This document shows positions 5,092 through 53,699 of a DNA stretch of 64,000 bases, one piece after another; within the stretch, counting starts at the first letter, position 1, and the number at the start of each line of letters is the position of its first letter. This DNA comes from Minisyncoccota bacterium. Its GTDB lineage: Bacteria; Patescibacteriota; Minisyncoccia; Phycocordibacterales; UBA9973. The stretch covers positions 20,606 through 84,605 of the forward strand of contig JBAYVZ010000003.1 in assembly GCA_041674285.1 (NCBI GenBank), in the 5' to 3' direction. A program made the translations under genes and the position numbers. The notes beneath the pieces were generated by a model that saw only the letters and a list, made by a program, of their open reading frames with translations, was not told the DNA's origin and searched no databases.

Positions 5092-5095
5092 CTTG

Positions 5096-8343: not shown

Positions 8344-8358
8344 CACGTAAAAACATTT

Positions 8359-31159: not shown

Positions 31160-31232
31160 TTGTGTATATTATACACCTTTTCATCAATTTTGTCAATATT
31201 GGATAAATACCCTATTTTATAAGGCTAAACAC

Positions 31233-31258
31233 AATAAAATCCCTCAGATGAGGGATTT
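31233..31258. repeat. hairpin AAAATCCCTCA-GAT-TGAGGGATTT, downstream flank of the inserted gene
   Basis: Identical to the hairpin at 32302-32328. Confidence 0.7.
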
Positions 31259-32276: not shown

Positions 32277-32301
32277 ATAATACCATTTTAGAAACCAACA
32301 A

Positions 32302-32328
32302 AAAATCCCTCAGATGAGGGATTTTATG
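32302..32328. repeat. hairpin AAAAATCCCTCA-GAT-TGAGGGATTTT, upstream flank of the inserted gene
   Basis: Identical stem and loop to 31233-31258. Confidence 0.7.
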
Positions 32329-32336
32329 GAAACAGA

Positions 32337-32876
32337 TTATTTCTTGAATGGTACACCGATGAGTTCAAAGAATTTTGTTGCTTCAGGCTTTGTCTTGGCT
32401 GTAGTCACGATTGTAACTGCCATACCGAATACATCCTTTAGCTCTTCATCCCCTGTCTCTGGAAAGATTGTGTGTTCCTTTATAGACATAGTTAGATTAC
32501 CGATATCATCTACGATCTTTCTCTCGATACCACGAAAGTCTTTTGTACGAGGGATAGCTACATTGATTAGCTTGTCTAGGAATCCGTACATACGAGCTCC
32601 ACGTAGAGTAACAACTACACCGATCGGATCACCTGTACGAATCTTGAATGATGCGACAGATTTCTTTGCACCGCGTAGAGATGGCTTTTGACCAGTGATC
32701 TTTGCGATACGATCCATGATGAACTTGTTGCGATCCTTGTCGCGCTTGATACCAGAACCAGTACCAACAGCAACAACAACCTTTGTAAGGCGAGGTGCAG
32801 CCATACTACTCTTGTAGCCAAATTCACCCTTGAGTGTACTGTATGCTTTCTTTTCTTTTATCTTTGTTGTTTCCAT
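32337..32876 (-). CDS. rplE: 50S ribosomal protein L5
   Basis: Conserved L5 sequence. Confidence 0.9.
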   Translation of the reverse strand: METTKIKEKKAYSTLKGEFGYKSSMAAPRLTKVVVAVGTGSGIKRDKDRNKFIMDRIAKITGQKPSLRGAKKSVASFKIRTGDPIGVVVTLRGARMYGFLDKLINVAIPRTKDFRGIERKIVDDIGNLTMSIKEHTIFPETGDEELKDVFGMAVTIVTTAKTKPEATKFFELIGVPFKK

Positions 32877-32882
32877 AATATT

Positions 32883-33098
32883 TTAACTTACTTTCTTAAC
32901 ATTGGACACGTGGATAGGCATTGCCTTTTCTACGATCTGACCTTTTGCTCCACGAGTAGCTTTCATGTGTTTCTTCTTCATGTTTACACCTTCGATGATA
33001 ACCATGTTTGAAGTAGGCATTGCTTTCTCAATCTTGCCTTTCTTACCCTTACTTCCCCCAGCTATTACTATTACATTGTCTCCTTTTTTTACGTGCAT
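32883..33098 (-). CDS. rplX: 50S ribosomal protein L24
   Basis: KOW motif ([18 protein letters not shown]). Confidence 0.9.
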
Positions 33099-33227
33099 AT
33101 ATTTTCTAAATTTTATAATTTTTAATTTTGTAATTTCTAAATAATTTTTTAATGTAATAATTTTTAAACATTGAAGTTTGGGTCATTATTTAAAAATTAA
33201 AAATTGGAAATTAAAAATTCTTGTTAC

Positions 33228-33599
33228 TTAAATGACTTCCGGGGCAAGTGAGATTATTTTCTGGTATCCACGTTCTGCCAATTCACGAGGAATAGGACCG
33301 AACACACGACCTGCTTTTGGATCTTGCTTGTCTTTTTCTAGAATAACTACTGCGTTGTCATCAAATCTGATGTATGAACCATCTTTTCGGCGAAATGCAT
33401 TTGTAGTACGTACAACGACAGCCTGTAGAACGTCCTTTTTCTTTACTCCCTTGCGAGGTTCAGCTACCTTTACTGATAGGACTACACGGTCACCGATACC
33501 AGCATAACGACGCTTTGAAGATCCAAGCACTTTGAAAACCTTTCCGACTTTACCGCCGGCATTATCTGTGATCTTTACTACTGTTCCGTCTTGTATCAT
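33228..33599 (-). CDS. rplN: 50S ribosomal protein L14
   Basis: Conserved L14 sequence. Confidence 0.9.
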   Translation of the reverse strand: MIQDGTVVKITDNAGGKVGKVFKVLGSSKRRYAGIGDRVVLSVKVAEPRKGVKKKDVLQAVVVRTTNAFRRKDGSYIRFDDNAVVILEKDKQDPKAGRVFGPIPRELAERGYQKIISLAPEVI

Positions 33600-33608
33600 A
33601 AAATATTG

Positions 33609-33854
33609 TTACGCAATTACCTTAAAATGCTTGTCTTTTGACATTGGTTTTGTCTCTTCGATTTCGACTACATCGCCAATTTTCTTTGTGTTGTTTTCAT
33701 CATGAGCCTTGTATTTCTTGCTCTTCTTGATGCGCTTTCCGTATTTTGTGTGTTCTACGAAGCGAGTTACAGATACTACTACTGTCTTATCCATCTTGTC
33801 ACTTGTAACGACACCTTTTAATACTTTATTCTTATTTGTCTTTGTTGTATTCAT
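33609..33854 (-). CDS. rpsQ: 30S ribosomal protein S17
   Basis: Conserved S17 sequence; no rpmC (L29) gene between rpsQ and rplP. Confidence 0.85.
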
Positions 33855-33859
33855 ATATA

Positions 33860-34282
33860 TTATCGTGCTACCACGCGAGTCTTAACTGGTAACTTTGTAC
33901 CGGCCTTTCGAAGTGCTTCTTTTGCAAGAGCTTCTGGGATGCCGTCTACTTCAAATAATACACGTCCAGGGAATATTTCTACGCAGTAACCTTGTGGATC
34001 TCCTTTACCCTTTCCCATACCTACCTCGGCTGGCTTTGCTGTAAATGGTCTGTCAGGGAAAATACGGATCCAAATGCGTCCGGCTTTTGTAGCAGTACGA
34101 GTAGCCACCTTACGAGCAGACTCGATTTGGTTTGACTTGATGCGTCCAGCACTGATAGCCTTGAGACCATATGAACCAAAAGCAACAGTAAGACCACGAG
34201 TCTCTACTCCACTCTGCATTCTACTCTCGCTCTTGCGACCAGTATGCCACTTTCTAAATTTTACTTTTTTGGGTAATAACAT
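33860..34282 (-). CDS. rplP: 50S ribosomal protein L16
   Basis: Conserved L16 sequence. Confidence 0.9.
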
Positions 34283-34296
34283 ATAGATTATTTAGA

Positions 34297-34959
34297 TTAC
34301 TTTTTTTCATCACTAAAAACTTCTCCACGGTATATCCAGACCTTGATACCGATATCTCCATAACTCATATGAGCCTTTTCACGAGCAAAATCAACGTCAG
34401 CACGGAATGTCTGAAGTGGAATAGAACCACGCTTTATCTGCTCTGTACGTGCGATTTCTGAACCAGCAAGACGTCCTCCTAGGAATATACGTGCTCCCTT
34501 TACTCCGCGAGCAGTCATAACCTTTTCGATTGTCTGTTTTAGCACACGGCGGTATGGTAGACGCTTTTCAAGACCCTCGGCTATCATACATGCTACGATT
34601 GCAGCATCTGCATCAGGATTTGCTACTTCTACTATATCTAGCTTTAAATCTTCACTAGCTACGATACGGCGCTTTGCCAATGCCTTGATTATATCTGCCT
34701 TTAGCTTTGTAGCACCATCCCCTCCACGTCCGATAATCATACCAGGGCGAGATGTGTGAACGATAACTTTTGTAGCTTTTGCATTTCTTTCAATATCAAC
34801 ACGAGAAACATAAAAACCACGTAGCTTCTTTGCTAAGAATTCACGGATAACAACATCACTTGCTAGCAAGTTACTGTATTTCTTATCAGCAAACCATCGT
34901 GATTTCCAATCACGGAGTGTTACTAGTCTATGTGCGTATGGATGGACAACTTTTGACAT
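34297..34959 (-). CDS. rpsC: 30S ribosomal protein S3
   Basis: KH domain and C-terminal domain. Confidence 0.9.
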   Translation of the reverse strand: MSKVVHPYAHRLVTLRDWKSRWFADKKYSNLLASDVVIREFLAKKLRGFYVSRVDIERNAKATKVIVHTSRPGMIIGRGGDGATKLKADIIKALAKRRIVASEDLKLDIVEVANPDADAAIVACMIAEGLEKRLPYRRVLKQTIEKVMTARGVKGARIFLGGRLAGSEIARTEQIKRGSIPLQTFRADVDFAREKAHMSYGDIGIKVWIYRGEVFSDEKK

Positions 34960-34972
34960 AAATATCTATAAA

Positions 34973-35377
34973 TTAATCTTTCTTAGCAGTCTTTGCTACC
35001 TTTTTTGGAGCTTTTACTGTTTTTGGTGTTGATTTCGACTTTTTTGGTGTAATAACTTTTTCAGCAAGAGTAAGCACGACATGACTTGTGCGCTTGTTTA
35101 TGCGTGAAGCAGATCCACGAGCACGAGGCATTGAACGCTTCATAACTATACCCTTGTCTACTGTAACACTTGAAACTACAAGGTTTTCTGAACTTATACC
35201 AGAGTTCTTTGCGTTTGCAATTGCTGAATTCAATAGCTTTTGTATAGGAAGTGATGCTCTCTTTGGCAAGAAAGACAAATGCGTATTAGCATCAGCAACC
35301 CTTTTGCCTTTAATTAGTTCCGCTACAAGGCGAACCTTGCGGGGTGACTGTCTATAGTTTTTTAGAAATGCTTTCAT
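34973..35377 (-). CDS. rplV: 50S ribosomal protein L22
   Basis: Conserved L22 sequence with Lys-rich tail. Confidence 0.9.
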   Translation of the reverse strand: MKAFLKNYRQSPRKVRLVAELIKGKRVADANTHLSFLPKRASLPIQKLLNSAIANAKNSGISSENLVVSSVTVDKGIVMKRSMPRARGSASRINKRTSHVVLTLAEKVITPKKSKSTPKTVKAPKKVAKTAKKD

Positions 35378-35387
35378 AGTTTAATTA

Positions 35388-35735
35388 TTATTTCTTCTTA
35401 GTATCAGCTGTCGTAGCCTTTGCGGACTTTGCGGCTGTAATCTCAGCTTCTTTCTTCTTCTGCTCTAATTCTTTCTGCATCTTACCTCCGTGACGTACGA
35501 ATTTCTTTGTAGGAGAGAATTCACCCAATCGGTGACCTACCATGTCTTCTGAAACCAGAACTTCGACATGAGTCTTACCATTGTGCACCCCAAACATAAA
35601 ACCTACCATCACTGGCGATATAACGCACGCACGAGACCATGTTTTAATCATGCCTGTCTCGATTGGCTTTTTTCCGGCAATCTTTTTCAAGAGCCTTTCG
35701 TCTACATATGGACCTTTTTTTAGTGATCTTGTCAT
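35388..35735 (-). CDS. rpsS: 30S ribosomal protein S19
   Basis: Conserved S19 sequence; normally adjacent to rplB, here separated from it by ~7.9 kb. Confidence 0.9.
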
Positions 35736-35839
35736 AACAATATAAAGAAGCTCTAACTGAGCTCGTAGGGTTATACTAGCAAATTTAAAATAATTGTCAA
35801 ATTTATCCCCCTACCCCATTTAACCCAATGTACATAGGA

Positions 35840-35881
35840 TTGTTTTTTTACCCAAATGTGGTACTGTAAAAGAAAAATTCT
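35840..35881 (+). promoter_or_regulatory. repeated 42-nt leader/promoter element ttgtttttttRcccaaatgtggtactgtaaaagaaaaattct (copy 1, upstream of the pyrD-like gene)
   Basis: Near-identical to 38219-38260; a partial third copy lies before 37019. Confidence 0.45.
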
Positions 35882-35908
35882 ATAAAACAAACAATAAACA
35901 AAAAGGTT

Positions 35909-36886
35909 ATGATACTACGCAACATCTATTTTCTCCCAGCACAAGGTGCCTCGGGAGTACAAGGTTTTTTTGGAGACCCAAGATATCCAGAATACAAACA
36001 CAGCGGATTGATAAGAGCGACTTTTGGAGATATTTTCCATGGAATGGGATTTGTTTCCAAGACAGGAACTTATTTCTACAACAAAGGCAATGTGGAATTA
36101 GACAGAAATGGCTATTCCTTTAAAAGATTTGCCCCAGACGCAATTCGACCTTTTATTCTCAGAGGGGCAGCCCTAAATGCTGTAGGACTCAGTAATCCTG
36201 GTTATGAAAAGTTACTCAAAACAGGTTTATGGTTTGAGCGAACAGACCCATTTATGTTGTCATTTATGGCAGTGGAGAATACAGTAGAAAAGAGAATTGC
36301 TGAAGCTGAACTATTTGTAGAAGAAATGGCAAATTATCTTGGAAAATTTCGCACTCAATTTGCACTACAAGTAAATCTTTCCTGTCCCAATGTAGGTCAC
36401 GAGCAACATGGCTTGATTGCAGAATCATACAAAATGTTTGAGATTCTAAATAGACTAAGAATTCCATTAGTTCCTAAAATCAACGCATTACTCGATCCGG
36501 GAATCGCTTTTGAAATCATGGATCATCCTGCCTGCGATGCCCTATGTGTATCAAATACCATACCTTTTGGACAAGGACCTAGTGGTAAAATTGATTGGTC
36601 TAAATATGGACCCAAAGGTAAATCACCGCTTGAAAGAAAGAAGTATCCCCCCGGTGGATTATCAGGTGCACCAATATTCCCATTGGTGGTAGATTGGCTA
36701 CGTCATGCTAGCGAACTGAAAAATAGCAAGCCAATAATCGCTGGTGGTGGAGTTATGGACAAGGAATCCGTAGAAATATTGGCACAATATCCAAATGTAG
36801 AGGCCATATCCATAGGATCAGTAGCATTCCTAAGACCAGGGAGAGTAAGGGGAATAATAAAACAATGCTATAAAAGCATTAATTAA
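35909..36886 (+). CDS. dihydroorotate dehydrogenase family (class 1-like) flavoenzyme
   Basis: LSNPGYEKL, NLSCPNV, GGLSGAPI, IIAGGGV motifs match the DHOD / dihydropyrimidine dehydrogenase fold. Confidence 0.65.
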   Translation: MILRNIYFLPAQGASGVQGFFGDPRYPEYKHSGLIRATFGDIFHGMGFVSKTGTYFYNKGNVELDRNGYSFKRFAPDAIRPFILRGAALNAVGLSNPGYEKLLKTGLWFERTDPFMLSFMAVENTVEKRIAEAELFVEEMANYLGKFRTQFALQVNLSCPNVGHEQHGLIAESYKMFEILNRLRIPLVPKINALLDPGIAFEIMDHPACDALCVSNTIPFGQGPSGKIDWSKYGPKGKSPLERKKYPPGGLSGAPIFPLVVDWLRHASELKNSKPIIAGGGVMDKESVEILAQYPNVEAISIGSVAFLRPGRVRGIIKQCYKSIN

Positions 36887-37018
36887 AATCCCATTTTTAA
36901 AAAAAATAGAAAGTCCTGTTTTGCTTGCGCAAAACAGGACTTCTTGCTTTCTGGGTCCAAAAAGGCTAATCTAAAAGAAAAATTTCTAAATTAAATCACT
37001 TCTTTAAACAACTAAATT

Positions 37019-38173
37019 ATGAGCAAAATCAAAACAACTGACGAATTTGATAATTTCTCTAAAAATTTTCAAAAGGAACACACCATGCCCTATGCTTTCG
37101 GGATCGGAATCTGCTTTGAGGACGAAAAAGGGAAACCTATTGCCCACAAGTGGCTCGCTCTAAGTGTAGACGAAAACCTTGGTACAGCTTCAGTATTGAT
37201 GAAATCAATGGGAATTAAAATGGAAGGAAACTACCCGCAATACTACAAAATGAATGAATTCATTGCCATAGATATTGAAAAATATTTTTCACCCTTCGAA
37301 AATGACGGGAAATATCATGAAAACATAAAGGCACTAGAATACACTCAATACATAAAGTATAAAAGGACTAATGCTGTATTAATTTTCTATCCAACACAAG
37401 ATTTCTTTGGAGGTATGATATCTAGTAATGCTGACGCACATTTTCGATTGGCAGCCATTTCTCGACTGAAATTTAAACCTAACACAATCTGTTTGGACAA
37501 TTTATTAAATGTTTTACCAAAAAATGTGTACCTAAGTAACGGAGATGTTTGCAGTATTGATTTTTGGAATCAAGAAGAATTTATAAAGGGAAACTCACAA
37601 GTTCAAATTCAAAACATAGACCAGATACCTTTTCTTATATGGGGAGCACCCATTCCACCTAAGGTGCGTATTGCTAGTATTGATTGTGCCAGACTCGGGG
37701 CATACCTATCCCCTGGAACTACGATCATGCCCTATGGCTTTGTAAATTTCAATGCTGGGACTCTCGGAAAATCAATGGTAGAAGGCACAATTTCTGCGGG
37801 AACCACTATTGATGATGGTACAGATATCGGTGCTAGGTCTGGATTCCTCGGAACACTTTCTGGTGGAAACACAACAAAGCTTTCAGCTGGTAAAAATTGC
37901 CTTATTGGTGCTGAGTCTCAGTGTGGTGTGATTCTGGGAGACAACTGCGTAATAGCGACAGGAACTTGTTTTGCACAAGGTACCCCAATTCTGGAAATTG
38001 ATCCAAACATTAAAGAACTTGATAACCCATCAAGAATAATCCGTATTGGAAAAGCAAAAGATTACAATGGCAAAAGTGACCTGACTTTCTGGAGAAATTC
38101 AATTACAGGTGCATTGGAAGTTTTTAATAAAACTAACAAGCATAGTCTGAACGAAGAACTCCACAAGAATTAA
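37019..38173 (+). CDS. left-handed beta-helix acyltransferase, DapD-like (tetrahydrodipicolinate N-succinyltransferase family) with ~200-aa N-terminal domain
   Basis: PPKVRIASIDCARLGAYLSPGTTIMPYGFVNFNAGT...hexapeptide repeats resemble DapD (..GAFI..T.LMPSYVNIGA..). Confidence 0.55.
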   Translation: MSKIKTTDEFDNFSKNFQKEHTMPYAFGIGICFEDEKGKPIAHKWLALSVDENLGTASVLMKSMGIKMEGNYPQYYKMNEFIAIDIEKYFSPFENDGKYHENIKALEYTQYIKYKRTNAVLIFYPTQDFFGGMISSNADAHFRLAAISRLKFKPNTICLDNLLNVLPKNVYLSNGDVCSIDFWNQEEFIKGNSQVQIQNIDQIPFLIWGAPIPPKVRIASIDCARLGAYLSPGTTIMPYGFVNFNAGTLGKSMVEGTISAGTTIDDGTDIGARSGFLGTLSGGNTTKLSAGKNCLIGAESQCGVILGDNCVIATGTCFAQGTPILEIDPNIKELDNPSRIIRIGKAKDYNGKSDLTFWRNSITGALEVFNKTNKHSLNEELHKN

Positions 38174-38196
38174 TTAAATTTAATAAAAATAAGCAC

Positions 38197-38228
38197 CCTA
38201 TGCATATAATGCATAGGGTTGTTTTTTT
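38197..38228 (+). terminator. terminator hairpin CCCTATGCATATAATGCATAGGG + T-run
   Basis: Perfect palindrome followed by TTGTTTTTTT; its T-run merges into copy 2 of the 42-nt element. Confidence 0.65.
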
Positions 38229-38293
38229 GCCCAAATGTGGTACTGTAAAAGAAAAATTCTTAATTTTAAATCACTCTTTAAACAATTAAATTT

Positions 38294-39277
38294 ATGAGCA
38301 ACACAGAAATCACGACAAACTACGCAGGGCAAATTACAAAAGCTCTCTTAGATTCAAATTCAGCTGGCTACGACTTTGCTAACCCTAAACAATGGGCTAG
38401 TGGTACGTACAACCCTTTTTATGTGGACAACAGAAACCTTCAATCACTCCCAGAAATCAGGAAAATTCTGAGAAAAGGATTGGCTTCTTTAATTAATGCA
38501 GAAGTTGATTATGTTTATGGTATTCCTAATGCAGGCATTGCCCCTGCTACACTCCTGGCTCTGGAATTAAACAAACCGTTGTTGTTAAAATTAAACGGAT
38601 TGTATTATTCCATTGACTTGAACTATGTAAAAGAGCTTGTCCGAAATAACTCAAAAGAAATTGTTTGGGGTACTGAGATCATCGCTGGTACGACACCCTT
38701 TGGTACTGTATGTGGAATAGTTGCAGCAGAAGAATCCGATCTGCCATTTGTATTTATCCGCAAGGAACCGAAGGGTCACGGATTGAACAAGCAAATCGAA
38801 GGGATTATCAAACCTGGCGCTTTTGTGACACTAATGGACCCAATAGTTAAAGAATTCGACAGGTACACAGAGATCGCCAAAACGGCCATAGTAGAATCTG
38901 GAATGGATCCACGTTACACATGGGAAATCCCATTAAAAATCGAAAAGGAAGCTGAAGGCATCCTCGGGGCTACGATAGTTAGCAATGAGGACCTGGTAAG
39001 TACCGGAGAATCCATGTTGAAAGAAATAACAGATTTAGCTGATGAATATTCAGCAAAAATCATTCCTATTTCGATTTTTGATTACAAGCTGAATTCTGCA
39101 GTTGAAAATTTCAAAAAACATGGGATAGAGAACCGTAGCGTGGTAGATTTCCTTGAGATTTTAAAAGCCCTCGGAGAGAAGGGTATGCCAGATGCAGATG
39201 AAAGAAAAATCTGGACTTGGTACATGGATCAACCCAACTGGGGAGACAAGAACGGCTTCCCTGCTGTTCGTAAATAA
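38294..39277 (+). CDS. type I phosphoribosyltransferase-like protein (OPRTase-like core, 327 aa, atypical)
   Basis: FVFIRKEPKGHG..QIEG matches the OPRTase FNRKEAKDHGEGG..G; the canonical PRPP loop is replaced by AFVTLMDPIVKEF; a second PRPP-like motif TIVSNEDLVSTGESM lies further C-terminal. Confidence 0.5.
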   Translation: MSNTEITTNYAGQITKALLDSNSAGYDFANPKQWASGTYNPFYVDNRNLQSLPEIRKILRKGLASLINAEVDYVYGIPNAGIAPATLLALELNKPLLLKLNGLYYSIDLNYVKELVRNNSKEIVWGTEIIAGTTPFGTVCGIVAAEESDLPFVFIRKEPKGHGLNKQIEGIIKPGAFVTLMDPIVKEFDRYTEIAKTAIVESGMDPRYTWEIPLKIEKEAEGILGATIVSNEDLVSTGESMLKEITDLADEYSAKIIPISIFDYKLNSAVENFKKHGIENRSVVDFLEILKALGEKGMPDADERKIWTWYMDQPNWGDKNGFPAVRK

Positions 39278-39308
39278 CGTAAATAAAACAAGGGATTTAA
39301 AAAATAAA

Positions 39309-39338
39309 AAGAGGGCGACACTATCGTGTCCCCCTCTT
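39309..39338. terminator. bidirectional terminator AAGAGGGCGACACTATCGTGTCCCCCTCTT
   Basis: Between convergent genes 38294-39277 and 39365-40252. Confidence 0.6.
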
Positions 39339-39364
39339 TTTTAGTTTGGCTAACTTTTTTTAAT

Positions 39365-40252
39365 TTAATGAATTGATTGTTTTCTTAAACTAATAAATCC
39401 AGAAATTGAACTCTGTAATTTTATAGTTTCCCTTCTGGCAGCTTCAGCGAAATCTTCACCAGCAGATGCATACAAAATACCGCGCGATGAATTGATCATA
39501 ATTCCACCATTGTTAATATTCAAACCTGCAGCCAGTGTGGCCTCCAAGTCACCACCTTGAGCCCCAATCCCTGGAATAAGTCTATCCAACTCTCCACCTG
39601 TTTGTTCTACAATACGCTTTAAATCTTCAGTAAAAGTCGCACCGGTAACAAGCATGCAATTTTTGTTTTTGTTCCAGGTTTTTTCATCTGAAATACGCTT
39701 TGCTACATTCAAATACAATGGTAGTCCATTCTCGCAAATCATACCCTGGAATTCATCACTACCCTTGTTCGAGGTGCGGCACAATACGATGATACCGTTG
39801 TCTTTACGTTCCAAAAATGGTGTTAATCCCGTGTAGCCCATATATGGGTTAACGGTCACAGCATCAGCACCAATCACTTCAAATACAAAACGTGCATATC
39901 TTTCAGCGGAATTTTCAATTTCAGAGACTTTCATGTCGAGTATAGATCGTATACCTTTTGATTTAGCATGGGCCACAATACTCTCCAAAATACTCGAACC
40001 GATAGCTCCGTACGGCAAGTAGAAAGCCAAATTTGGCTTGTAAACTTTTACAACATCACAAGTGGCATCAATAATCTTGTTATTAAAGAAAACCATAGAG
40101 TCATGGATGTGATTATCTGAACCCCATTCCCCGCCAATTTGTTCTTTGACAGAAATCGGGATTTTTTCATAATCAGTGTCCATACCTACGCAAACCATTC
40201 TTTGATCTGCATCCATCTGACGCATTGCGTCCATAAAATTAATTGTACTCAT
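39365..40252 (-). CDS. pyrF: orotidine 5'-phosphate decarboxylase, type 2 (long form)-like
   Basis: VKVYKPNLAFY, DMKVSEI, GADAVTVNPYMG, LIPGIGAQGGD motifs. Confidence 0.6.
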   Translation of the reverse strand: MSTINFMDAMRQMDADQRMVCVGMDTDYEKIPISVKEQIGGEWGSDNHIHDSMVFFNNKIIDATCDVVKVYKPNLAFYLPYGAIGSSILESIVAHAKSKGIRSILDMKVSEIENSAERYARFVFEVIGADAVTVNPYMGYTGLTPFLERKDNGIIVLCRTSNKGSDEFQGMICENGLPLYLNVAKRISDEKTWNKNKNCMLVTGATFTEDLKRIVEQTGGELDRLIPGIGAQGGDLEATLAAGLNINNGGIMINSSRGILYASAGEDFAEAARRETIKLQSSISGFISLRKQSIH

Positions 40253-40374
40253 ATTCCTATATATATTTAAGGGTTTTTGTATACATTACAAGATATATAG
40301 TCTATGTCAATACAAAAAATTTTGATTTTAAGGGTTGAACTGATACTATAGAGCAAAACATTCAAAAAAAATAA

Positions 40375-41061
40375 ATGGAAAAACAAGAAAAACTAGTAAA
40401 ACTGCTTTTAGAAAAAGGAATTATTAAATTCAGATCCGAGGAACCAGTCGAAGAGAACCCTCAAATCAAGAGCCCTATGTACACCGACTTTGCTATGATT
40501 GTAGATTGGGATGAAATATCATCACTATCTACAGAAATATTGGCATCAAAAATTGATCAGAAAATAAATGAACTTGGTTTAATTTTTGATTTCATTGTTG
40601 GAATAAGCACAGCCGGCATACAAGTGGGTAAATTGATCGCTGAAAAATACGACAAACCATTCACGAGAATCAAAAGTGGCCAAACATACTCAGGAAATTC
40701 TGGAGACAATAATTTCATGCACGAACCACACTTTGTGAGCGGCAAAAAAGCCCTAGTAGTAGAGGACATTATTTACGCCAATGGAAATATGGTAAAAGAA
40801 GTGGATCTGATACGAAGACTCGGGGCTAGCGTAGTGATGGGGGCATCCATTCTCACCTACAACAACCTTGATTACCAAGGAGAGATCATTGAGAAGCAAA
40901 TTCCACTAGTTAATTCTCTAACAATCGACGAGGTTTTGATTATTTGCATTAAAAAAGAAATAATAAAGCCAAACGATTTTGAGATTCTAAAGAATTTTTT
41001 CATTGACCCCCGAAGCTGGTACAACAAGAACTTCCCAAACACAGCAATCGGGTCTAATTAG
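40375..41061 (+). CDS. type I phosphoribosyltransferase-like protein (OPRTase-like fold, degenerate PRPP motif VVEDIIYANGNM)
   Basis: IKFRSEE..SPMYTD ... KALVVEDIIYANG resembles PyrE, but with Y-A-N-G where the TTGG/TAGT loop should be. Confidence 0.45.
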   Translation: MEKQEKLVKLLLEKGIIKFRSEEPVEENPQIKSPMYTDFAMIVDWDEISSLSTEILASKIDQKINELGLIFDFIVGISTAGIQVGKLIAEKYDKPFTRIKSGQTYSGNSGDNNFMHEPHFVSGKKALVVEDIIYANGNMVKEVDLIRRLGASVVMGASILTYNNLDYQGEIIEKQIPLVNSLTIDEVLIICIKKEIIKPNDFEILKNFFIDPRSWYNKNFPNTAIGSN

Positions 41062-41170
41062 CACATTCACCAAAACAAAAAAATCCCTTACGATTCATTC
41101 GTAAGGGACTTTTTTATTTAAGCTTACAACTGTATAGAACAAAAAGCACCCGTATGGGTGCTTTTTTATA

Positions 41171-42256
41171 TTATTTACCACTATTTAGATATTTTGGAAT
41201 AAAGACTAGAAGTATTTTATAAAAATCCTCTATCGCCTTTATCTCTACGTATTCATCTTTTGTGTGAATATTAGGAGAATCAATGCGGGTAATTATAGCT
41301 GGTATTCCCAATTCTGAAAAAAATCTTGCATCCGAGCTACCCTCCATCTTTCCAAACTCAATCTTTTTACCCAAGACATCAGCGGATACTTTTTTATACA
41401 TCTGAACAAAAGGATGCTTTGGATCCTGAATAAACGGCTCCCCTGACATCACAACCTCAGCATTTGAAAACAGAGAATTAATCTTCTTTAAGATAAACTC
41501 TTTATCTTTTATGCCTGGATATCTGACATCCAATAGCATCTCAGCATAATCAGGAACTTTATTTACAGCATCACCACCTTTTATCAAGCCTAAATTCATA
41601 GTGGTTTTCCATTGTCTGGTTTTTAATTCAGGAATTATTTTTCTAAGCTTTAAATAATCTTTTATTAATTTATCAATCGCATTCTCGCCCCAAAAAGGTC
41701 GTGATCCGTGAGCACTCTTACCAAAACCTTTTAGTTTTAATTGCAAAATACCCTTTTTATTTACAACGATAGTAGACAACTCTGTTCCCCCATCAGGAGC
41801 AATGACGAGGCCCGCGCGGTATTTTTCTTTTTTTATTAAATACTCAGTACCATTCCTGCCCCCAATCTCCTCATCGGTAGTCAGCATGAGTGCGACAGAA
41901 TTATGCTGTCCATCTCGAGCAAAAGTCCTAAGAGCGAGCATCATAGCAGCACAGCCAGCCTTCATGTCCCCTGTACCCCGACCATACATCCTACCCTTTT
42001 TAACTACAGGATTGAATTGGTCTATATTTCCAGGCACAACGTCTAAATGCCCAGACAAAATCAAGTCAAAATTTTTACCCTCAGACAAACTAACAATAAT
42101 GACAGGATAATCATTTTGATTAAAAACTTTTACAAAGACTTGCTCATTCTCAAAGAATTTTTTAACAAACTCAACAATGTCAAACCGACCATCATTTTTA
42201 CTACTGTCTATCTTGACCAAATTAGAGGTTAATTCAATTAATTCTTTTTTATCCAT
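41171..42256 (-). CDS. M20 family metallo-hydrolase (DapE/ArgE/N-acyl-amino-acid deacylase-like)
   Basis: LSGHLDVVP, GRGTGDMKAG, TTDEEIGG signatures. Confidence 0.7.
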   Translation of the reverse strand: MDKKELIELTSNLVKIDSSKNDGRFDIVEFVKKFFENEQVFVKVFNQNDYPVIIVSLSEGKNFDLILSGHLDVVPGNIDQFNPVVKKGRMYGRGTGDMKAGCAAMMLALRTFARDGQHNSVALMLTTDEEIGGRNGTEYLIKKEKYRAGLVIAPDGGTELSTIVVNKKGILQLKLKGFGKSAHGSRPFWGENAIDKLIKDYLKLRKIIPELKTRQWKTTMNLGLIKGGDAVNKVPDYAEMLLDVRYPGIKDKEFILKKINSLFSNAEVVMSGEPFIQDPKHPFVQMYKKVSADVLGKKIEFGKMEGSSDARFFSELGIPAIITRIDSPNIHTKDEYVEIKAIEDFYKILLVFIPKYLNSGK

Positions 42257-42324
42257 ATTTTTAATATATCATATTTAATCTAATAAATAAGGAGGTCACA
42301 GAGACCTCCTTATAGACAACAACC

Positions 42325-43314
42325 TTACAAAACCAACCCAAATGTAGTATCCGTTGCTCCATGAATTTTGTAATTCTTTCGAGAATTCCACAACCCACCA
42401 GCATAAACATAATCCTTTATTTGTGGACTATACACAAAGAACAACCGAAATATCATCGGATCGCCATTACGCAACATAGGAGCAATAAATGACTGATAAT
42501 ACATAGAATTGTTTTCCTCTAGTACCCTTTTAATTCTAGTTTTTGTAGATATCCCGCTTATACCAGAATCTTCAAGAATTTTTTTGTGCGGGTACCATAT
42601 CTCCACACCTCTAGCTTTAGAACATTGTTTAGCTTTCAAGCAAAAACCTAAATCCCACTCAAAGTCATTAAAATCATCCACTGTAACTTCTTTCCATAAA
42701 CCCATTTCTAGGCCGTAACTCTTGTTTCCCTTTTGCTTCAAAGAACTTACTGATCGATTTTCAAATTTATGAAATTCTTCTTCGTTGGGTTCTGCTTTTA
42801 TCAAAAGTAAGTCTTGTGAATTTAAAGCATCTTCCATTGATATCATAGGAGTCCAGCAATCATAGCGACCATCTCGCCTCTCTGATAAAACTGTTTTAAA
42901 TTCCGGCCAATAAGGATTTATTTCCTTAAGCGTTTCTCTAAAACGAGGATTTGTCTCGTTAGCAATGCCCATACCACTAGGTCTCTCTTCAACTTCATAG
43001 ATATGTATTTCGGAGTCTTCCCGGAGTACACAATCCAACCTGATAAACAGCGAAGGTACACCAAAATTATGCTGAACCCAAGTTTCTTCTTTTGAAAAAA
43101 AATCTTTCCATTTATTTATTAAGGATAAGGCTTGTTTTTCGCATAAAGCTGATAATTTATACTCTTCATATGAGTAATTATTTTTCCAATTCATATTTCG
43201 ATTATATTTATTTTTTAAAGAACTATAAGGTAGCTCTGTTACCTGAGATTTTGTTTTGGTGAGCCTCACGCTCCCGTTTATACTAGATGACCTCATCTCG
43301 TATAAATATAGCAA
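42325..43314 (-). CDS. hypothetical protein (possible ATP-grasp-like ligase; start uncertain)
   Basis: ORF only; weak resemblance of IHIYEVEERPSGMGIA to ATP-grasp motifs; last gene of the island on this strand. Confidence 0.3.
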   Translation of the reverse strand: MLYLYEMRSSSINGSVRLTKTKSQVTELPYSSLKNKYNRNMNWKNNYSYEEYKLSALCEKQALSLINKWKDFFSKEETWVQHNFGVPSLFIRLDCVLREDSEIHIYEVEERPSGMGIANETNPRFRETLKEINPYWPEFKTVLSERRDGRYDCWTPMISMEDALNSQDLLLIKAEPNEEEFHKFENRSVSSLKQKGNKSYGLEMGLWKEVTVDDFNDFEWDLGFCLKAKQCSKARGVEIWYPHKKILEDSGISGISTKTRIKRVLEENNSMYYQSFIAPMLRNGDPMIFRLFFVYSPQIKDYVYAGGLWNSRKNYKIHGATDTTFGLVL

Positions 43315-43570
43315 CAGCTATAGTGATTTTTTTCGAACCACCATTCTTGGGGTTTCTAGACTCCCCAAGAACACTGATACGAAAACAAACACCAGATCTC
43401 GTATTTGAGAGCTGGTGTTTGTTTTGAGTTAGTTTCTTAGTTTAATTAAATATCAACGCAAATATCAGCTTTCAAATTTGAAAGCTTCCAGAAGATGACA
43501 TATGCGATATTGTTGATATTTCTATCCATAATTTATTTATAGCATGTATATAAATTTATGCAAGAATACA

Positions 43571-46447: not shown

Positions 46448-46542
46448 ATAATGAGTTGTTAAAGTTTATAAAGTAAAAAGTTTATAAAGTAAATGTATTT
46501 GTACCTACTTTCAACTTTCAACTTTCAACTTAAAGGCAATTG

Positions 46543-47742
46543 CTACGCAATTATCTTTGTTACGACACCAGCACCGACTGTCTTACCTCCTTCACGGATA
46601 GCAAAGTGTGTTTGATCTTCGAGAGCTACAGGAGTAACTAGTTTTACCTTTAGTTTTACTGTATCGCCTGGCATAACCATCTCTACTCCCTCTGGAAGTG
46701 TTGATTCACCTGTTACGTCAGTTGTACGGATGTAAAATTGTGGCTTGTAACCAGTAAAGAATGGAGTGTGGCGACCACCTTCCTCCTTCTTTAGAACGTA
46801 AACTTCACATTCAAATTCTGAGTGTGGAGTAACTGAACCGATTTTAGCAAGAACTTGTCCACGAGTGATATCTTCTTTTTTGATACCACGGATAAGGATA
46901 CCTGCGTTGTCGCCAGCCATACCTTCTTTTAGGTTTTTGTTGAACATTTCGATACCAGTAACTGTAGTCTTTACAGTGTCCTTGATTCCGACGATTTCTA
47001 CGTCTTCACCAACTTTCACGATACCACGCTCGATTTTACCTGTAACCACTGTTCCACGTCCTTCGATAGAAAAGATATCTTCGATTGGCATTAGGAATGG
47101 CTTTGTAACATCGCGTTATGGTTGTGGGATGTATGTATCTAGAGCATTTGCAAGATCTAGGATCTTCTTTGCCCATTCATCATTGTTATCTGCTGATTCT
47201 AGGGCCTTTAGAGCTGAACCACGGATAACTGGAGTGTTTGCACCATCGTAACCGTTCTTTGTAAGCAATTCACGTAGTTCTTCTTCAACAAGTTCCAACA
47301 TGTCTGCGTCATCCACCATGTCACACTTGTTAAGAAATACGACGAATTGTGGCACACCAACCTGCTTTGCTAGGAGCACGTGTTCACGTGTCTGTGGCAT
47401 TGCACCGTCAGTAGCTGCAACAACAAGAATAGCACCGTCCATTTGAGCGGCACCAGTAATCATGTTTTTGATGTAGTCAGCGTGACCTGGAGCATCGATG
47501 TGAGCGTAGTGGCGAGCTGGTGTCTCATATTCATTGTGAGACAAAGCGATTGTGATTCCACGAGCTTTTTCTTCAGGAGCTGAGTCAATATCACCCACCC
47601 CCTTTAGTTTTGCACTATATCCACCACCTTGGCGAGCCAATGTGTTAAGGATTGCTGCTGTTAAAGTCGTCTTGCCGTGGTCAACGTGGCCAATAGTACC
47701 AACGTTTACGTGCGGCTTTGAACGATTAAATTCTTCTGCCAT
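46543..47742 (-). CDS. tuf: elongation factor Tu interrupted by a single in-frame TAA (47116-47118): possible pseudogene, sequencing error or recoding site
   Basis: ORFs 47116..47742 and 46543..47091 are in the same frame and read ...[22 protein letters not shown]..., colinear with EF-Tu (..[21 protein letters not shown].. in Thermus). Confidence 0.85.
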
Positions 47743-47754: not shown

Positions 47755-47803
47755 GGTCCCCCACCACTTAACGAATTTAAAATTCTATAAGTGGTGGGGG
47801 ACA
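47755..47803. promoter_or_regulatory. perfect 14-bp stem hairpin (GTCCCCCACCACTT...AAGTGGTGGGGGAC) in the tuf 5' leader
   Basis: Lies 12 nt upstream of the tuf ATG; no U-run on the mRNA strand. Confidence 0.4.
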
Positions 47804-48015: not shown

Positions 48016-49290
48016 TTACCAAGTTATGAGGACACCTCCATTTGCCCCATTCCCAGTCATCCAATCATGATTATTTATACCACCTTCTCCTATGTCAATT
48101 TCAAATTTAGCATTGATAGGCAGATCTTCCCATCTATAAGTATTTACAACGTGAGCACCTGCACCACCACCACCACTCATAGGGGTGACGAATTCTCCTC
48201 CTACTAAAATTTTTGTTGTACAGAAAAGAGCACTAGCAAGTGTTGATTCTCTTCCAAAACCTCCCCCTCCGGCACCCCAACTAATAGTATTAGGCGACAA
48301 ACCTCTACCATTTGTAGTTCCGGTACGAGCACCACCTGCGCCTCCATATCCTCCAACTGTCATATTACCACCTGATATTGCAAACGTTGATGTTGCAGAA
48401 GTTCCACCACTACCACCCACACAAGCAGAATTAGTAGAATACCCACCTGAAGCTGAAAAAATTGACGGAGTTACAACAAAAGGATTTTGGCCATTCCCAC
48501 CCTTAGCAGTCGCTTGTTCTATCCCATTTACATAACCCTTACCCCCTTCACCACCTGTTTGCATTGTAGTACCCCAAGTAGTAGTACCGTAGCCCATTTT
48601 CCCAGCTTCAGCTTGAATTGTATAAAAAGTAGGTGTTGAACCAGAATAAATTCTCAAGGAAGAAGAATCCCCAGGGTTAGTTTTATTACCTGCGTTACCT
48701 GGATTTGAGTCTGTCCTAGGAACACTATTTCCACCAGCCCCCCAAAGCTCTACTTTTATATCTTTTACACCAGGGGGTAAAATAGCAGTGTCAAAGGTAT
48801 GATGTCCAGGAGTATTCCTATACCAAACACCAGAAAAAGAAGAACAAACAGTCAATTCTCCTGACGATGAGGCACATAGTCTCTTCGGTCCAGGCTTACC
48901 TCCAGAAATATCAATATTTTCTAGAACTAATCTATCCACACTGACCTTGCCTGTTCCTGGGCTAAAATTACAACCAGAAGGAGTACAGTTAGCACTACCT
49001 AAATTCAAACTACCAAAAGAAGCAGCATTACCATTTACAACCATAGAACCCTCTACATGGAAATTTGCTATTGGCGCACTAGATGTACCCAAAGCCAATT
49101 TACTTGTTTTATATTGAGGACTATATGTACCACCCATTAATGGCATGGCAGTATTACTTGCTGAAGAAAATGAGGCAGGACGAGATGTGTAGGTAGCAAA
49201 AGTATTTAAACCTAAAGTAAGAACAAGTGCTGGTACTAATATTTTTAAAATTTTAAATAAGTCTTTCATATTTTTATTAATTATGGGCAA
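48016..49290 (-). CDS. secreted protein: N-terminal domain paralogous to the two small secreted proteins (with C..C loop) + C-terminal Gly-rich domain (GAGGNS..GGEGGKG..GGYGGAGGAR..)
   Basis: Signal peptide; RLCASSSGELTVCSS loop; Gly-rich repeats reminiscent of phage tail-fibre-like Gly-rich domains. Confidence 0.5.
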   Translation of the reverse strand: MPIINKNMKDLFKILKILVPALVLTLGLNTFATYTSRPASFSSASNTAMPLMGGTYSPQYKTSKLALGTSSAPIANFHVEGSMVVNGNAASFGSLNLGSANCTPSGCNFSPGTGKVSVDRLVLENIDISGGKPGPKRLCASSSGELTVCSSFSGVWYRNTPGHHTFDTAILPPGVKDIKVELWGAGGNSVPRTDSNPGNAGNKTNPGDSSSLRIYSGSTPTFYTIQAEAGKMGYGTTTWGTTMQTGGEGGKGYVNGIEQATAKGGNGQNPFVVTPSIFSASGGYSTNSACVGGSGGTSATSTFAISGGNMTVGGYGGAGGARTGTTNGRGLSPNTISWGAGGGGFGRESTLASALFCTTKILVGGEFVTPMSGGGGAGAHVVNTYRWEDLPINAKFEIDIGEGGINNHDWMTGNGANGGVLITW

Positions 49291-49709
49291 ATAATAATCT
49301 CTTTGTTTGTATCAATACATAATGATTCCAATGTGTAGACGCTAGAGGATGAACCAGAAGACCCACCACCAGTCGACACGCTCAATCCATATGGATCTTG
49401 AATATCCCAAATATAAAGCTCATTTGAATATACAGAACCGACTTGAGCGAAATTACCCCATATTCCTAATGACTTTATGTAAGAATTCCCATAAACATTC
49501 AAAGTAGAACCTGAGCTAGCTGTTGTTCCTAAACTTAGAGATCCCCATATATTCTGAACTTTATTACCCGTATTTATGACTGGACCAAGATTTGATGCTG
49601 GGTCAGAAACTGAGGGTTTAGGCGTATAGGCTGCAGAAACCCAATTTATTGCTACTGTAAAAACTAGAGCAATTATTAATATTTTTATAGTGTGTAAAAT
49701 TTTTTTCAT
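49281..49709 (-). CDS. small secreted protein with C-terminal Cys loop (LCIDTNKEIIICP)
   Basis: Signal peptide; paralog of 49711-50193. Confidence 0.5.
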   Translation of the reverse strand: MKKILHTIKILIIALVFTVAINWVSAAYTPKPSVSDPASNLGPVINTGNKVQNIWGSLSLGTTASSGSTLNVYGNSYIKSLGIWGNFAQVGSVYSNELYIWDIQDPYGLSVSTGGGSSGSSSSVYTLESLCIDTNKEIIICP

Positions 49710-49710
49710 A

Positions 49711-50193
49711 TTATTGGCAAATTACAACTTTGTGTGTTCCATTATCAAGACAGAGAGCCCGACTAGCCCCTGTACCTCCAGATAAACCATAAACATGCAT
49801 CTTCTCCTGAATTACGCTAGACTGGGACTGCGTCGTCTTAACTGTATTGTTAACTACCATTTTGTTCGCAGTGACAGATCCAGGTATACCCAAAGAATCC
49901 GCAGATAAATCAAGAGACCCAAATGTAGTAAGACCGTATACATATACTGTTGAATCATTGCCATTACTCAAATAATCATAATAAGAACCAACAACCAAAG
50001 CATGAGGGACTTTATTACCAGAAGCACCAGTAGGAGTAGTTCCCACCTTGGACTGATCGACTAAAGGTGATGTTGTATATACAGGAGTAGAGAATCCTCC
50101 ATTTGGTGGAGTCGCAGTAGGCCCAGCAAATGCTACGCCAGCAAATGCTACGCCCACCAAAACCATGATTGAGAAAATTTGTTTTGTTTTCAT
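49711..50193 (-). CDS. small secreted protein with C-terminal Cys loop (LCLDNGTHKVVICQ)
   Basis: Signal peptide VAFAGVAFAG; paralog of 49281-49709. Confidence 0.5.
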   Translation of the reverse strand: MKTKQIFSIMVLVGVAFAGVAFAGPTATPPNGGFSTPVYTTSPLVDQSKVGTTPTGASGNKVPHALVVGSYYDYLSNGNDSTVYVYGLTTFGSLDLSADSLGIPGSVTANKMVVNNTVKTTQSQSSVIQEKMHVYGLSGGTGASRALCLDNGTHKVVICQ

Positions 50194-50197
50194 ATAA

Positions 50198-53100
50198 TTA
50201 GCGTTCTATTACTTTTATCTTCTTTGTTAATGGGTCAAAATTTACAGTTACATCATCACTACCTGGCTTTGTTGGATTTGAACAAGTGACCCTAAATATC
50301 GTAGGACCAGGATCAGAAACCGACACCGCATACCCAATAGAATTATTATCCATCTGAGCAGGTTGACCAGAAGCTACAGAAGTATTCTTTGTTACATTAG
50401 AAATTGCACAAGAATTTGCGAATGTAGATGTCCAATAAAGGTTTACATTTTCATAAATTTTTGCATTAGCTGGGAAAGCCCATGCGGTTACTATTGGTGT
50501 TGGGTTTACGGCAGTTACTCTCACTAGTATTGGCCCAACAGTCGCTCCATACATATCCAAACAGTTATAGAGAGTAAACGTCTGAGGTCCAGGTGTATTT
50601 CTTATAGTTACAGGAGTACTACTATTACCTATTATGTTTCCTGATTTCCAAGGAGACCCAGGACTAGTTGACGCCCTACAAGAGTTGGCACTGACACCAG
50701 ATATCTCCCAAAATAGTGTCTGAGTAGTTCCGATCACCGCCTCAATATTACGTGTATTTACATTTCCTATACCAAATTTTACAACAGCAGGAACTGGTGG
50801 AATCGTGGTCACAGTCACATCCAGATACTTAGTCACACTTGAATTTGCAGAGTTGAAACATTCCAACATGAATGAATCACCTGTTGATGATATAGATACA
50901 GGGAATGCATTAGGCGCCGTCAAGTTGGCAGAAAGTCGTGCGTTATTTAGCTTTACACTTGATGGTGATGTTCTATAAATATCACATCCACCACTAGCAT
51001 TTGTGGTTGACCAATACAATCCAGTATTTCTATTTGTTGAAGGTACAGGATTTATCGTAGCTTGTAAACCACCGTCGATTACTGGATCTGCAATGACCCC
51101 AACATTCACAGATAGATCTTTTGATACAAGAGAAACCCCGTCAGTACATGTAATTCTAAAAATAGAATTTGCAGATACACTCACTCCTGGCCTATTACCA
51201 TTCTTAGTCAAACCTATACCAAGATCAGAAAATGAGGGTGTAATTCTAGCAAGATTACATGAAGTAGTGTTTACCGATGTCCAACTCAATGTAGTATTGC
51301 CCCCCGAAGTAGAGCTAAATGATCCTGGGGTAGCTATAAATGAAGTAATTGAAGGTAGAGTCCCTGGATTATTCACAGAAATTAAAGAAGTTGAAGATTT
51401 TGTTTCTACTGGCAAAAGTTTGTTAAAACAATCAACTTTATATAGAGCATTCTGTGTCCCCACGTTAAATGTCTTATTGTAGAAAGCCAAGCTATTTGAC
51501 ACTATTCCTCCTGAATTTTCTGCCATCGGAGAAGCAACCCATCCATCACTCACAGCTTGAACAATACCGTTTACGGTCTTACTTGCATTACATGCAACCA
51601 TATTCCCAGTAATAGGTGTTTCAACTGTATTGTTAATAAATATCTTGTAGTAGATATTCGAAGATGGAGAATATGGTAATCCAGATAATCCAACCCTAAA
51701 ATCCCCGCCGGGAGTTGATGCAAGATAAAGATGATTCCACTGAGAAGGAGGAGCAACAAATCTTACCCAATATTTTGTACCTTTCACAACATTTACATTA
51801 TTTATAGGTATATAGCCCCAATTATAGGTTGTAGTTGAATTTGAAGGCCAGACAGCAGAAGGATTTGGAAATACTGCATTTTGACTACTCAGCATGCCAC
51901 CAAGCGAACCATTATTATCCCTATGGATATAAACGTTTAAATCGTATGGCTTATATGCAGTATTTGCCTTATAATAAATTTTTATTTGTCTTAGTGGTCC
52001 AGTGTCTTGAGCCACAAAACTCTGCATAGAATGCTGTGTCGAGGTCGGGCTATCCATCAATACTGAAGATGCAGGCGTAATGGGGCCAATATTCCCTAAG
52101 CCATTTGTCTGATAGGTGCCGACTCTCTTATGTGTATAAAAATTTATATTAGAAGCATTTGGGGATGGGTATGATACAGAGTTAGGATTGGCTGATATAT
52201 TATCCATAAAATTCCAAACTTTTACAGGCTGGGTAAATGTAACAGACTGACCATTGTTAATATTGGTACAAGTCAATGAATAAGTATTTGAATATTGGCC
52301 TACATATATATTCTTAGACCCAGAGACAGGTGTAGCAGATGGAGACCCGGACCAAAGAGATCCAGACCAATTAGTATCCCCAGAAGTGTTTGAAGCAGAA
52401 CATGTCGTAGCATTTTTAACAGACCATGTAAGATTTACAGCATTCAGCGATTTTATATCTACTGGATTTGGCAATTTACTTGAATCTACAACATAAGAAA
52501 CATCATTTTTGTCTACTGTAAAAGTAACAGTCGGTGATACTTTTATGCTTACAGAAGAGGTTCTGATTATCGTACCATTAGAACAAACGATACTATATAT
52601 AGCATCAGAAGGGCCCACATTTACTGTAAAATATTTCCCCGAACCAGATGACGGTACTATTGAACCAACCCAACCGTCACCAGCAGCCTGACTAACACCA
52701 TTTACTGTCTTTGAAGCAGTACAAGCTGTGGGTGCTACTGTAGTTGAAGTATTTAAAGAATTAAAAAAGCTAAGAAGAACCTGATTACTAGACTCAGAAA
52801 CTACATATTTTGATGCGGATAAAGATATATACATATTCCCAGTAGACCCCGAAATCTTTACCCCACTCATATCAATCCAACCAACTACATCACTTCCCCA
52901 GGCATATCCAGACATATTTCTAGGCATAGTTGAATTACCCGCAGCAGCAACAGAAACACCAGAAAGGTCTATGAAGCCAGAAAATCCTGGTAAGGAAGTT
53001 GAACCGTTACCAGATAATACCTTTGCGAAACCAGAGAGAGTGGTCGCAGAAGTCATAGATCCAATTTTTGGAGCACACAATGCGACAGTATTCCCAGCAG

Positions 53101-53380
53101 GACAAGAAGCGAGAGTCGGGTCAAAATGTATCCAACCCAAATTATCATTCCAAGCGTAGTTCGAAAGTAACTTAGTGCTATCATTTACAGTCACTTTAAA
53201 AGAGCCATTACCGCAGGCCCCAATATCTCCACAATTGAAACTAATCCAACCAACGTTTCCAGACCATGCACTACCAGAAAGTTCAAAATCGGCAGCATCT
53301 ACATTAGAAGCAAAAGAAAATAAACTAAAAATAAAAACTGCCGCAAAACCTATATTGGATAAGTATTTTTTAATATTCAT
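50198..53380 (-). CDS. giant secreted/cell-surface repeat protein (1060 aa from MNIKKYL); N-terminal 'AW....GWI.F' repeats
   Basis: Signal peptide; repeated SGSAWSGNVGWISF / YAWNDNLGWIHF / GYAWGSDVVGWIDM; Ser/Thr/Asn-rich beta-rich body. Confidence 0.5.
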   Translation of the reverse strand: MNIKKYLSNIGFAAVFIFSLFSFASNVDAADFELSGSAWSGNVGWISFNCGDIGACGNGSFKVTVNDSTKLLSNYAWNDNLGWIHFDPTLASCPAGNTVALCAPKIGSMTSATTLSGFAKVLSGNGSTSLPGFSGFIDLSGVSVAAAGNSTMPRNMSGYAWGSDVVGWIDMSGVKISGSTGNMYISLSASKYVVSESSNQVLLSFFNSLNTSTTVAPTACTASKTVNGVSQAAGDGWVGSIVPSSGSGKYFTVNVGPSDAIYSIVCSNGTIIRTSSVSIKVSPTVTFTVDKNDVSYVVDSSKLPNPVDIKSLNAVNLTWSVKNATTCSASNTSGDTNWSGSLWSGSPSATPVSGSKNIYVGQYSNTYSLTCTNINNGQSVTFTQPVKVWNFMDNISANPNSVSYPSPNASNINFYTHKRVGTYQTNGLGNIGPITPASSVLMDSPTSTQHSMQSFVAQDTGPLRQIKIYYKANTAYKPYDLNVYIHRDNNGSLGGMLSSQNAVFPNPSAVWPSNSTTTYNWGYIPINNVNVVKGTKYWVRFVAPPSQWNHLYLASTPGGDFRVGLSGLPYSPSSNIYYKIFINNTVETPITGNMVACNASKTVNGIVQAVSDGWVASPMAENSGGIVSNSLAFYNKTFNVGTQNALYKVDCFNKLLPVETKSSTSLISVNNPGTLPSITSFIATPGSFSSTSGGNTTLSWTSVNTTSCNLARITPSFSDLGIGLTKNGNRPGVSVSANSIFRITCTDGVSLVSKDLSVNVGVIADPVIDGGLQATINPVPSTNRNTGLYWSTTNASGGCDIYRTSPSSVKLNNARLSANLTAPNAFPVSISSTGDSFMLECFNSANSSVTKYLDVTVTTIPPVPAVVKFGIGNVNTRNIEAVIGTTQTLFWEISGVSANSCRASTSPGSPWKSGNIIGNSSTPVTIRNTPGPQTFTLYNCLDMYGATVGPILVRVTAVNPTPIVTAWAFPANAKIYENVNLYWTSTFANSCAISNVTKNTSVASGQPAQMDNNSIGYAVSVSDPGPTIFRVTCSNPTKPGSDDVTVNFDPLTKKIKVIER

Positions 53381-53381
53381 A

Positions 53382-53699
53382 TTATTGATACAAGCTTTTA
53401 ATAATCTCGAGCTCTCGAGCACGAGCTTCCTTGGTAGGTAATGTATTTGATTTTTTGCTTTGGGATTGTTCCACGAATTCTATTTTTTGTTCTTCTGACA
53501 GATTTATATTCATAGCATCTTCGGCTGTATTATTTATCATCTCTTGTATTTTTTCTTCTTCTGTCTGAGGTATTAGAGAAGCTTTGTATTTTTTATAAAA
53601 AAAGACACCAAGTAGAACTAGAACAATTAATAAAATTATTATAATGATATTTTTTTTCTGAGAGAAAAAATTTTGTGAAACTTTTTTTATGTCAATCAT
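53382..53699 (-). CDS. small N-terminally membrane-anchored protein, first gene of the secreted-protein operon
   Basis: Single TM (IIIIILLIVLVLLGVFF) followed by a charged region; its stop abuts the start of the giant protein gene. Confidence 0.45.
   Translation of the reverse strand: MIDIKKVSQNFFSQKKNIIIIILLIVLVLLGVFFYKKYKASLIPQTEEEKIQEMINNTAEDAMNINLSEEQKIEFVEQSQSKKSNTLPTKEARARELEIIKSLYQ

Follow-up and report, generated by a model that had tools for sequence, protein, structure and literature searches.

The locus described here raises one question: is the stop codon that interrupts the gene tuf, encoding the elongation factor EF-Tu, a property of the organism or of the sequence that was deposited? 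The gene lies in a stretch of DNA of 64,000 nucleotides (hereafter the window), and the preliminary description of the window had reported a single in-frame TAA within it. Translation of the minus strand from 47745 to 46540 bore this out. The frame reads as a 399-codon EF-Tu with only one stop symbol, at codon 209 (47118..47116), where the plus strand reads tta. The list of open reading frames splits the gene into two pieces in the same frame, one of 208 aa (47742..47116) and one of 182 aa (47091..46543). The features of the locus are the following.

46543..47742, minus strand: tuf (EF-Tu), 399 codons and a TAG stop, intact apart from codon 209
47116..47118, minus strand: in-frame TAA at codon 209; all near relatives have GAA (Glu) at the orthologous position
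47118: the substituted base, A on the plus strand of the window and C in four related loci (L001, L002, L003 and L004)

On the coding strand, the change at 47118 is G>T, which converts GAA to TAA. We compared the product of tuf with known proteins, and found that the translation without codon 209 is 100% identical to a protein of 399 aa (P0001), which carries the domains PF00009, PF03144 and PF03143 (GTP_EFTU, D2 and D3) and has Glu at position 209. The domains are thus colinear with EF-Tu; the frame is interrupted in the window and unbroken in all relatives. Among the 120 closest EF-Tu sequences, Glu209 is conserved at a level of at least 90% and is flanked by the invariant residues P208 and R210, and all 120 proteins have a sense residue at position 209. 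These closest sequences all come from metagenome-assembled genomes (MAGs) of Candidatus Paceibacterota, Nomurabacteria and other Patescibacteria (CPR), and the window EF-Tu is 87-100% identical to the EF-Tu of Paceibacteria (Patescibacteria/CPR). The linker that joins the G domain to domain II contains the stop, and an in-frame ATG (Met218) lies 8 codons downstream of it.

The gene also matches the canonical EF-Tu gene upstream of the S10 operon. Both encode 399 aa with the GTP_EFTU, D2 and D3 domains, and in both tuf is directly upstream of rpsJ-rplC-rplD-rplW-rplB. The position directly upstream of rpsJ is likewise found in L001 and L002. The difference from the canonical gene is codon 209, which is TAA instead of GAA in this assembly alone.

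The neighbourhood of tuf has several features of its own. In the spacer between tuf and rpsJ (46461-46535), we found a 17-nt direct repeat, AAAGTTTATAAAGTAAA, in two copies, and three tandem copies of TTTCAAC. On the other side of the gene, a perfect 15-bp G+C-rich inverted repeat with a 17-nt loop (GTCCCCCACCACTTA ... TAAGTGGTGGGGGAC; 47756-47802) precedes the tuf start codon on the coding strand and ends 13 nt before it, and no obvious Shine-Dalgarno sequence was found between this repeat and the start codon. The inverted repeat could be the terminator of the upstream gene or a structure in the 5'-UTR. The gene fusA usually lies upstream of tuf. In the window, the genes directly upstream are five without Pfam hits (48016-53699, minus strand), including those for a protein of 1,060-1,074 aa and for a Gly/Ser/Thr-rich protein of 417-424 aa. 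This block is poorly conserved, being either 77-88% identical or replaced among relatives; L002 has fn3/Por_Secre_tail proteins there. This suggests a fast-evolving locus for surface or secreted proteins.

The S10/spc ribosomal protein cluster of the window is itself interrupted. About 7.4 kb of unrelated genes lie between rplB and rpsS (35900-43320), including genes for a DHO dehydrogenase, an OMP decarboxylase, a phosphoribosyltransferase, an M20 peptidase and a hexapeptide transferase, and a DUF5672 gene lies between rplE and rpsN/rpsH (31257-32276). The content inserted in the cluster varies among the relatives L002, L005 and L006.

To place the TAA among related sequences, we compared the window with public assemblies, two of which represent the same organism. 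The ENA contig k141_1702343 of ERZ27247358 (257,961 bp; loci L001, L012 and L014) is colinear with the window and 99.976-99.981% identical to it, with no indels. Contigs of the Logan assembly of SRR6484325 (L007, L011, L013, L015 and L016) have 99.96-100% identity to the window, also with no indels, and agree with the ENA contig wherever they overlap it. In the ENA contig, codon 209 of tuf is GAA (the Logan loci compared do not reach tuf), and base 47118 is the sole difference between the two genes over 1,200 nt, with no indels. This agrees with the earlier observation that tuf has no further sign of decay. The C at 47118 is also present in L002 (93% identity) and in L003 and L004 (about 95.5%). 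Furthermore, we scanned one genome per GTDB species and the JGI metagenome collection with a 35-mer around codon 209 in which the variable base was left open. The scan gave one locus in each collection, L003 (MAG JAGOUR01) and L004, and all four loci with the 35-mer, as well as L002, have C at 47118 and therefore GAA. The ENA and Logan assemblies may share reads and would in that case amount to a single witness; independent evidence for the direction of the change comes from the more distant relatives.

An exact-sequence look-up traced the protein variants of the window, including the two tuf fragments called by JGI/IMG, to one public contig of 87,594 bp, deposited at NCBI/JGI as 'MAG: Candidatus Paceibacterota bacterium' (locus tags WC089_, proteins MFA71920xx). 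Since the variants are on record from this contig only, the changes belong to the deposited MAG and are absent from every other assembly. Exact look-ups of the two tuf fragments, of the uL6 G159C variant and of two further ORFs in a contig index gave no hit. NCBI has no tuf protein for the WC089_ contig, as expected if tuf had been annotated there as a pseudogene.

The comparison with the ENA and Logan assemblies covered 57,088 bases of the window, the region 30683-36542 and a small gap at 5124-6175 lying outside it. We identified 14 differing sites, or about 1 per 4.1 kb. For eight of them more distant relatives could be aligned, and the window base was the odd one out at all eight (8/8); an outgroup was lacking at the other 6 of the 14. 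Because the window base is unique at all eight polarised sites, the changes must have arisen in the window sequence and do not stem from divergence shared with others. Apart from base 47118 in tuf, the sites are the following.

29606: private C>A, uL6 Gly159>Cys in the conserved PEPYKGKG motif; seven relatives have C
27440: private G>T, SecY Pro193>His; the proline is conserved in solved SecY homologues
56295: private G>T, RpoD/SigA Arg111>Ser; the residue belongs to WWIRQ, a conserved motif of region 2
19261: private C>A, Gly148>Val in a hypothetical protein of 380 aa
24657: private T>C, Lys73>Glu in a hypothetical protein of 521 aa
49512: private A>T, synonymous at Ser66 of a 142-aa protein
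2942: T>C relative to the Logan contig L016, Asn27>Ser in a YibE_F-family protein; no outgroup for the direction
8052: C>T relative to the ENA contig, synonymous AAC>AAT in the tmRNA tag reading frame; no direction assigned
8414: G>T relative to the ENA contig, intergenic
40290: private C>A, intergenic
47909: private G>T, intergenic, upstream of tuf
58798: C>A relative to the ENA and Logan contigs, intergenic
4278: A>G relative to the Logan contig, intergenic

Nine of the 14 differences are G:C>T:A changes (8414, 19261, 27440, 29606, 40290, 47118, 47909, 56295 and 58798). The other five are an A>T change at 49512 and transitions at 2942, 4278, 8052 and 24657. Under uniform substitution at 38% G+C, 12.7% of changes are expected to be G:C>T:A, and the observed 9/14 departs strongly from this expectation (binomial p = 9e-6). 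As an internal control, we used the natural differences that separate the window from relatives at 95-99% identity, of which about two-thirds (about 67%) are transitions, with a synonymous to non-synonymous ratio of about 6:1. The divergence from L005, for example, comprises 280 transitions, 77 G-T/C-A transversions and 61 other transversions, and the spectrum of the private set differs from it significantly (Fisher p = 2.8e-4). No common sequence context, such as CCG or a methylation motif, was evident at the nine G:C>T:A sites.

The effects on proteins also differ from natural divergence. The eight coding changes comprise six missense changes, one nonsense change (EF-Tu Glu209>stop) and one synonymous change. 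In the control there are 247 synonymous and 42 non-synonymous differences, and the first seven private coding changes depart from this proportion (Fisher p = 8.5e-5). Alignment to solved structures placed three of the missense changes at residues conserved across bacteria: PEPYKGKG of uL6 becomes PEPYKCKG, WWIRQ of RpoD region 2 becomes WWISQ, and the proline replaced in SecY is shared by the best-matching SecY structures, which come from three species. The earlier remark that tuf is the only interrupted essential gene of the window was upheld, the genes called on the ENA and Logan contigs all being full-length open reading frames in the window; several essential genes do carry private missense changes, which are not visible from the window alone. 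The substitutions are spread over codon positions and conserved residues as if unselected. The G:C>T:A excess is limited to one dataset and has no signature of selection.

A nonsense change in such a set is not surprising. In the coding sequence of the window, 10.7% of the possible G:C>T:A changes create a stop codon, and with five to six coding changes of this class the probability of at least one nonsense change is 43-49%. GAA>TAA is a prime nonsense route in this AT-rich, Glu-rich proteome.

The TAA therefore very probably arose by an error at one base (GAA>TAA) of the deposited MAG and does not reflect the organism itself. Sequencing or assembly error at this codon was among the options listed in the preliminary description, and the GAA of the nearest assemblies and the place of the change within a private, mostly G:C>T:A set both favour it. 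Base 47118 would be a consensus error of the G>T/C>A class, the putative error being read from the comparison of assemblies. The source of this class would be oxidised guanine (8-oxoG) or G/T base-calling errors, and such errors could have entered the consensus where local coverage was low, through amplification of scarce, damaged template, or during consensus building or polishing. The privacy of the substitutions, their spectrum, their unselected look and the chance expectation for a nonsense change come directly from the comparison; their physical cause we infer.

G/T confusion is known in Illumina base calling. C>A/G>T artefacts from 8-oxoG formed during DNA handling or library preparation have been described, and they were documented at low allele fraction (Costello et al. 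2013, PMC3616734). The window changes share with these artefacts the dominant substitution class (9/14), the restriction to one dataset and the disregard of codon position and conservation. They differ in that 8-oxoG artefacts are documented at low allele fraction in deep data, whereas the window changes stand in an assembled consensus, and the CCG>CAG context of 8-oxoG artefacts has no clear enrichment among the nine sites. The low allele fraction of the published artefacts is the main weakness of the explanation by sequence error. Artefacts at low fraction should enter a consensus only if coverage is low or if scarce template has been amplified, and the length of the contig (87.6 kb) argues against very low coverage.

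Alternatively, the substitutions may be real mutations of a variant lineage that the assembler captured, such as a clone with faulty 8-oxoG repair (MutM/MutY-type) or one under oxidative stress. On this view, the nonsense change in tuf would have arisen recently and be lethal or nearly so, and it would be carried by cells that do not grow, by relic DNA or by a minority variant. We consider this unlikely. The variants are indeed present in the deposited assembly, and mutators deficient in GO repair show a G:C>T:A bias, which fits the spectrum of the set. There is also a mild intergenic excess, with 5 of the 14 differences in intergenic sequence compared with about 13% non-coding DNA in the window (binomial p = 0.027). 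This excess could reflect weak selection, that is, real mutations, but equally poorer coverage of AT-rich spacers, or chance. On the other hand, a stop in tuf together with the changes in uL6 KGKG, RpoD WWIRQ and the SecY proline, all within 64 kb, is implausible as a majority genotype. Moreover, the natural divergence of the clade has no G:C>T:A dominance, though that divergence is mostly at synonymous sites.

A nonsense allele in one of two tuf copies was another option of the preliminary description, but it is very unlikely that the genome has a second, intact tuf and that the window copy is a newly inactivated pseudogene. Many bacteria carry both tufA and tufB, and fusA is not upstream of the window tuf, so a separate copy in a str operon is conceivable. 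Against this, tuf differs from its relative at one base in 1,200 nt and has none of the decay of a pseudogene. The exact EF-Tu P0001 is recorded on a single contig, and the GTDB representative of the clade has a single match to the 35-mer around codon 209. Both the 258-kb MEGAHIT contig and the 87.6-kb MAG contig run unbroken through tuf, while a near-identical repeat of 1.2 kb would usually break short-read contigs. A second copy would also leave the parallel damaging changes in the single-copy genes secY, rplF and rpoD unexplained.

A real stop that the cell bypasses is highly improbable. The bypass would be readthrough at Pro-UAA-C, a suppressor tRNA encoded elsewhere, or synthesis of EF-Tu as two pieces, the G domain (1-208) and, from a restart at Met218, domains II-III. 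Some features of the site do agree with it: the stop falls in an interdomain linker with an in-frame ATG nearby, and the TAA is preceded by proline, a residue that slows termination in E. coli when it stands before a stop codon. However, the stop is absent from every relative, including the 99.98%-identical DNA, so nothing can have evolved around it. The window holds only a tRNA-Ile(UAU) and a tmRNA, and the adjoining 4.7 kb of the ENA contig encode tRNAs for Arg-UCG, Gly-UCC, Pro-UGG and Gly-GCC; no tRNA with a UUA anticodon was found in the window or in these 4.7 kb. TAA is the main terminator of the window, ending 56 of its 68 genes. In addition, ATG218 is not preceded by a Shine-Dalgarno-like sequence, and a product begun there would be missing RDVTKPFL, with which domain II opens (its first strand). 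Nor could basal UAA readthrough supply the amounts of EF-Tu, the most abundant protein of the cell. We would give just as little credence to a TAA in the sole tuf of a living Paceibacteria lineage that obtains its EF-Tu by Pro-UAA-C readthrough or as two polypeptides. The option of site-specific readthrough raised in the preliminary description thus found no support, with the stop in no relative and no suppressor tRNA in the loci searched. A conserved recoding site was also considered and rejected, as no relative has the TAA.

A reassignment of UAA to a sense codon in this organism has a negligible probability, because nothing beyond the single in-frame TAA in 64 kb speaks for it, nearly all ribosomal protein genes are among the 56 of 68 that end in TAA, no other conserved gene of the window is interrupted and no tRNA(UUA) was found in the loci searched; stop-codon usage by itself refutes this reading, and the earlier judgement that there is no global reassignment of UAA holds. 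Known cases of recoding are UGA read as Gly in Gracilibacteria/SR1 and UAG read as Gln in some phages. The likeness of the tuf codon to stop-codon recoding in bacteria and phages is limited to an in-frame stop in a conserved gene. Unlike those cases, the stop in the window occurs once, is missing from the relatives and lacks a matching tRNA in the loci searched, and TAA is the main terminator.

The two RNA genes of the window are of interest in themselves. The tRNA-Ile(UAU) is located at 5095-5169 on the minus strand (ARAGORN; Rfam tRNA, 71 bits). Most bacteria read AUA through a CAU tRNA with the lysidine modification made by TilS, and a genomic UAU tRNA-Ile is less common. This gene may be informative on AUA decoding in the lineage. 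At 7485-8344 on the plus strand, smpB (146 aa) is followed immediately by the tmRNA gene, whose tag is ANKVAAVKSPYAGNFAFSFA.

The result is mainly of value for quality control. The rate of substitution errors in the MAG appears to be about 2.5e-4 per base, with a G>T signature. At that rate, a genome of roughly 1 Mb would contain a few hundred false variants, and its false 'pseudogenes' might number ten or more. Gene loss and unusual translation are frequent topics in discussions of Patescibacteria/CPR genomes, and a spurious internal stop in a core gene such as tuf can distort counts of pseudogenes, estimates of completeness and inference of the genetic code. The TAA in tuf is almost certainly not a real biological feature. 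In annotation, codon 209 should be read as GAA (Glu), and the cell most likely makes an ordinary full-length EF-Tu with Glu209.
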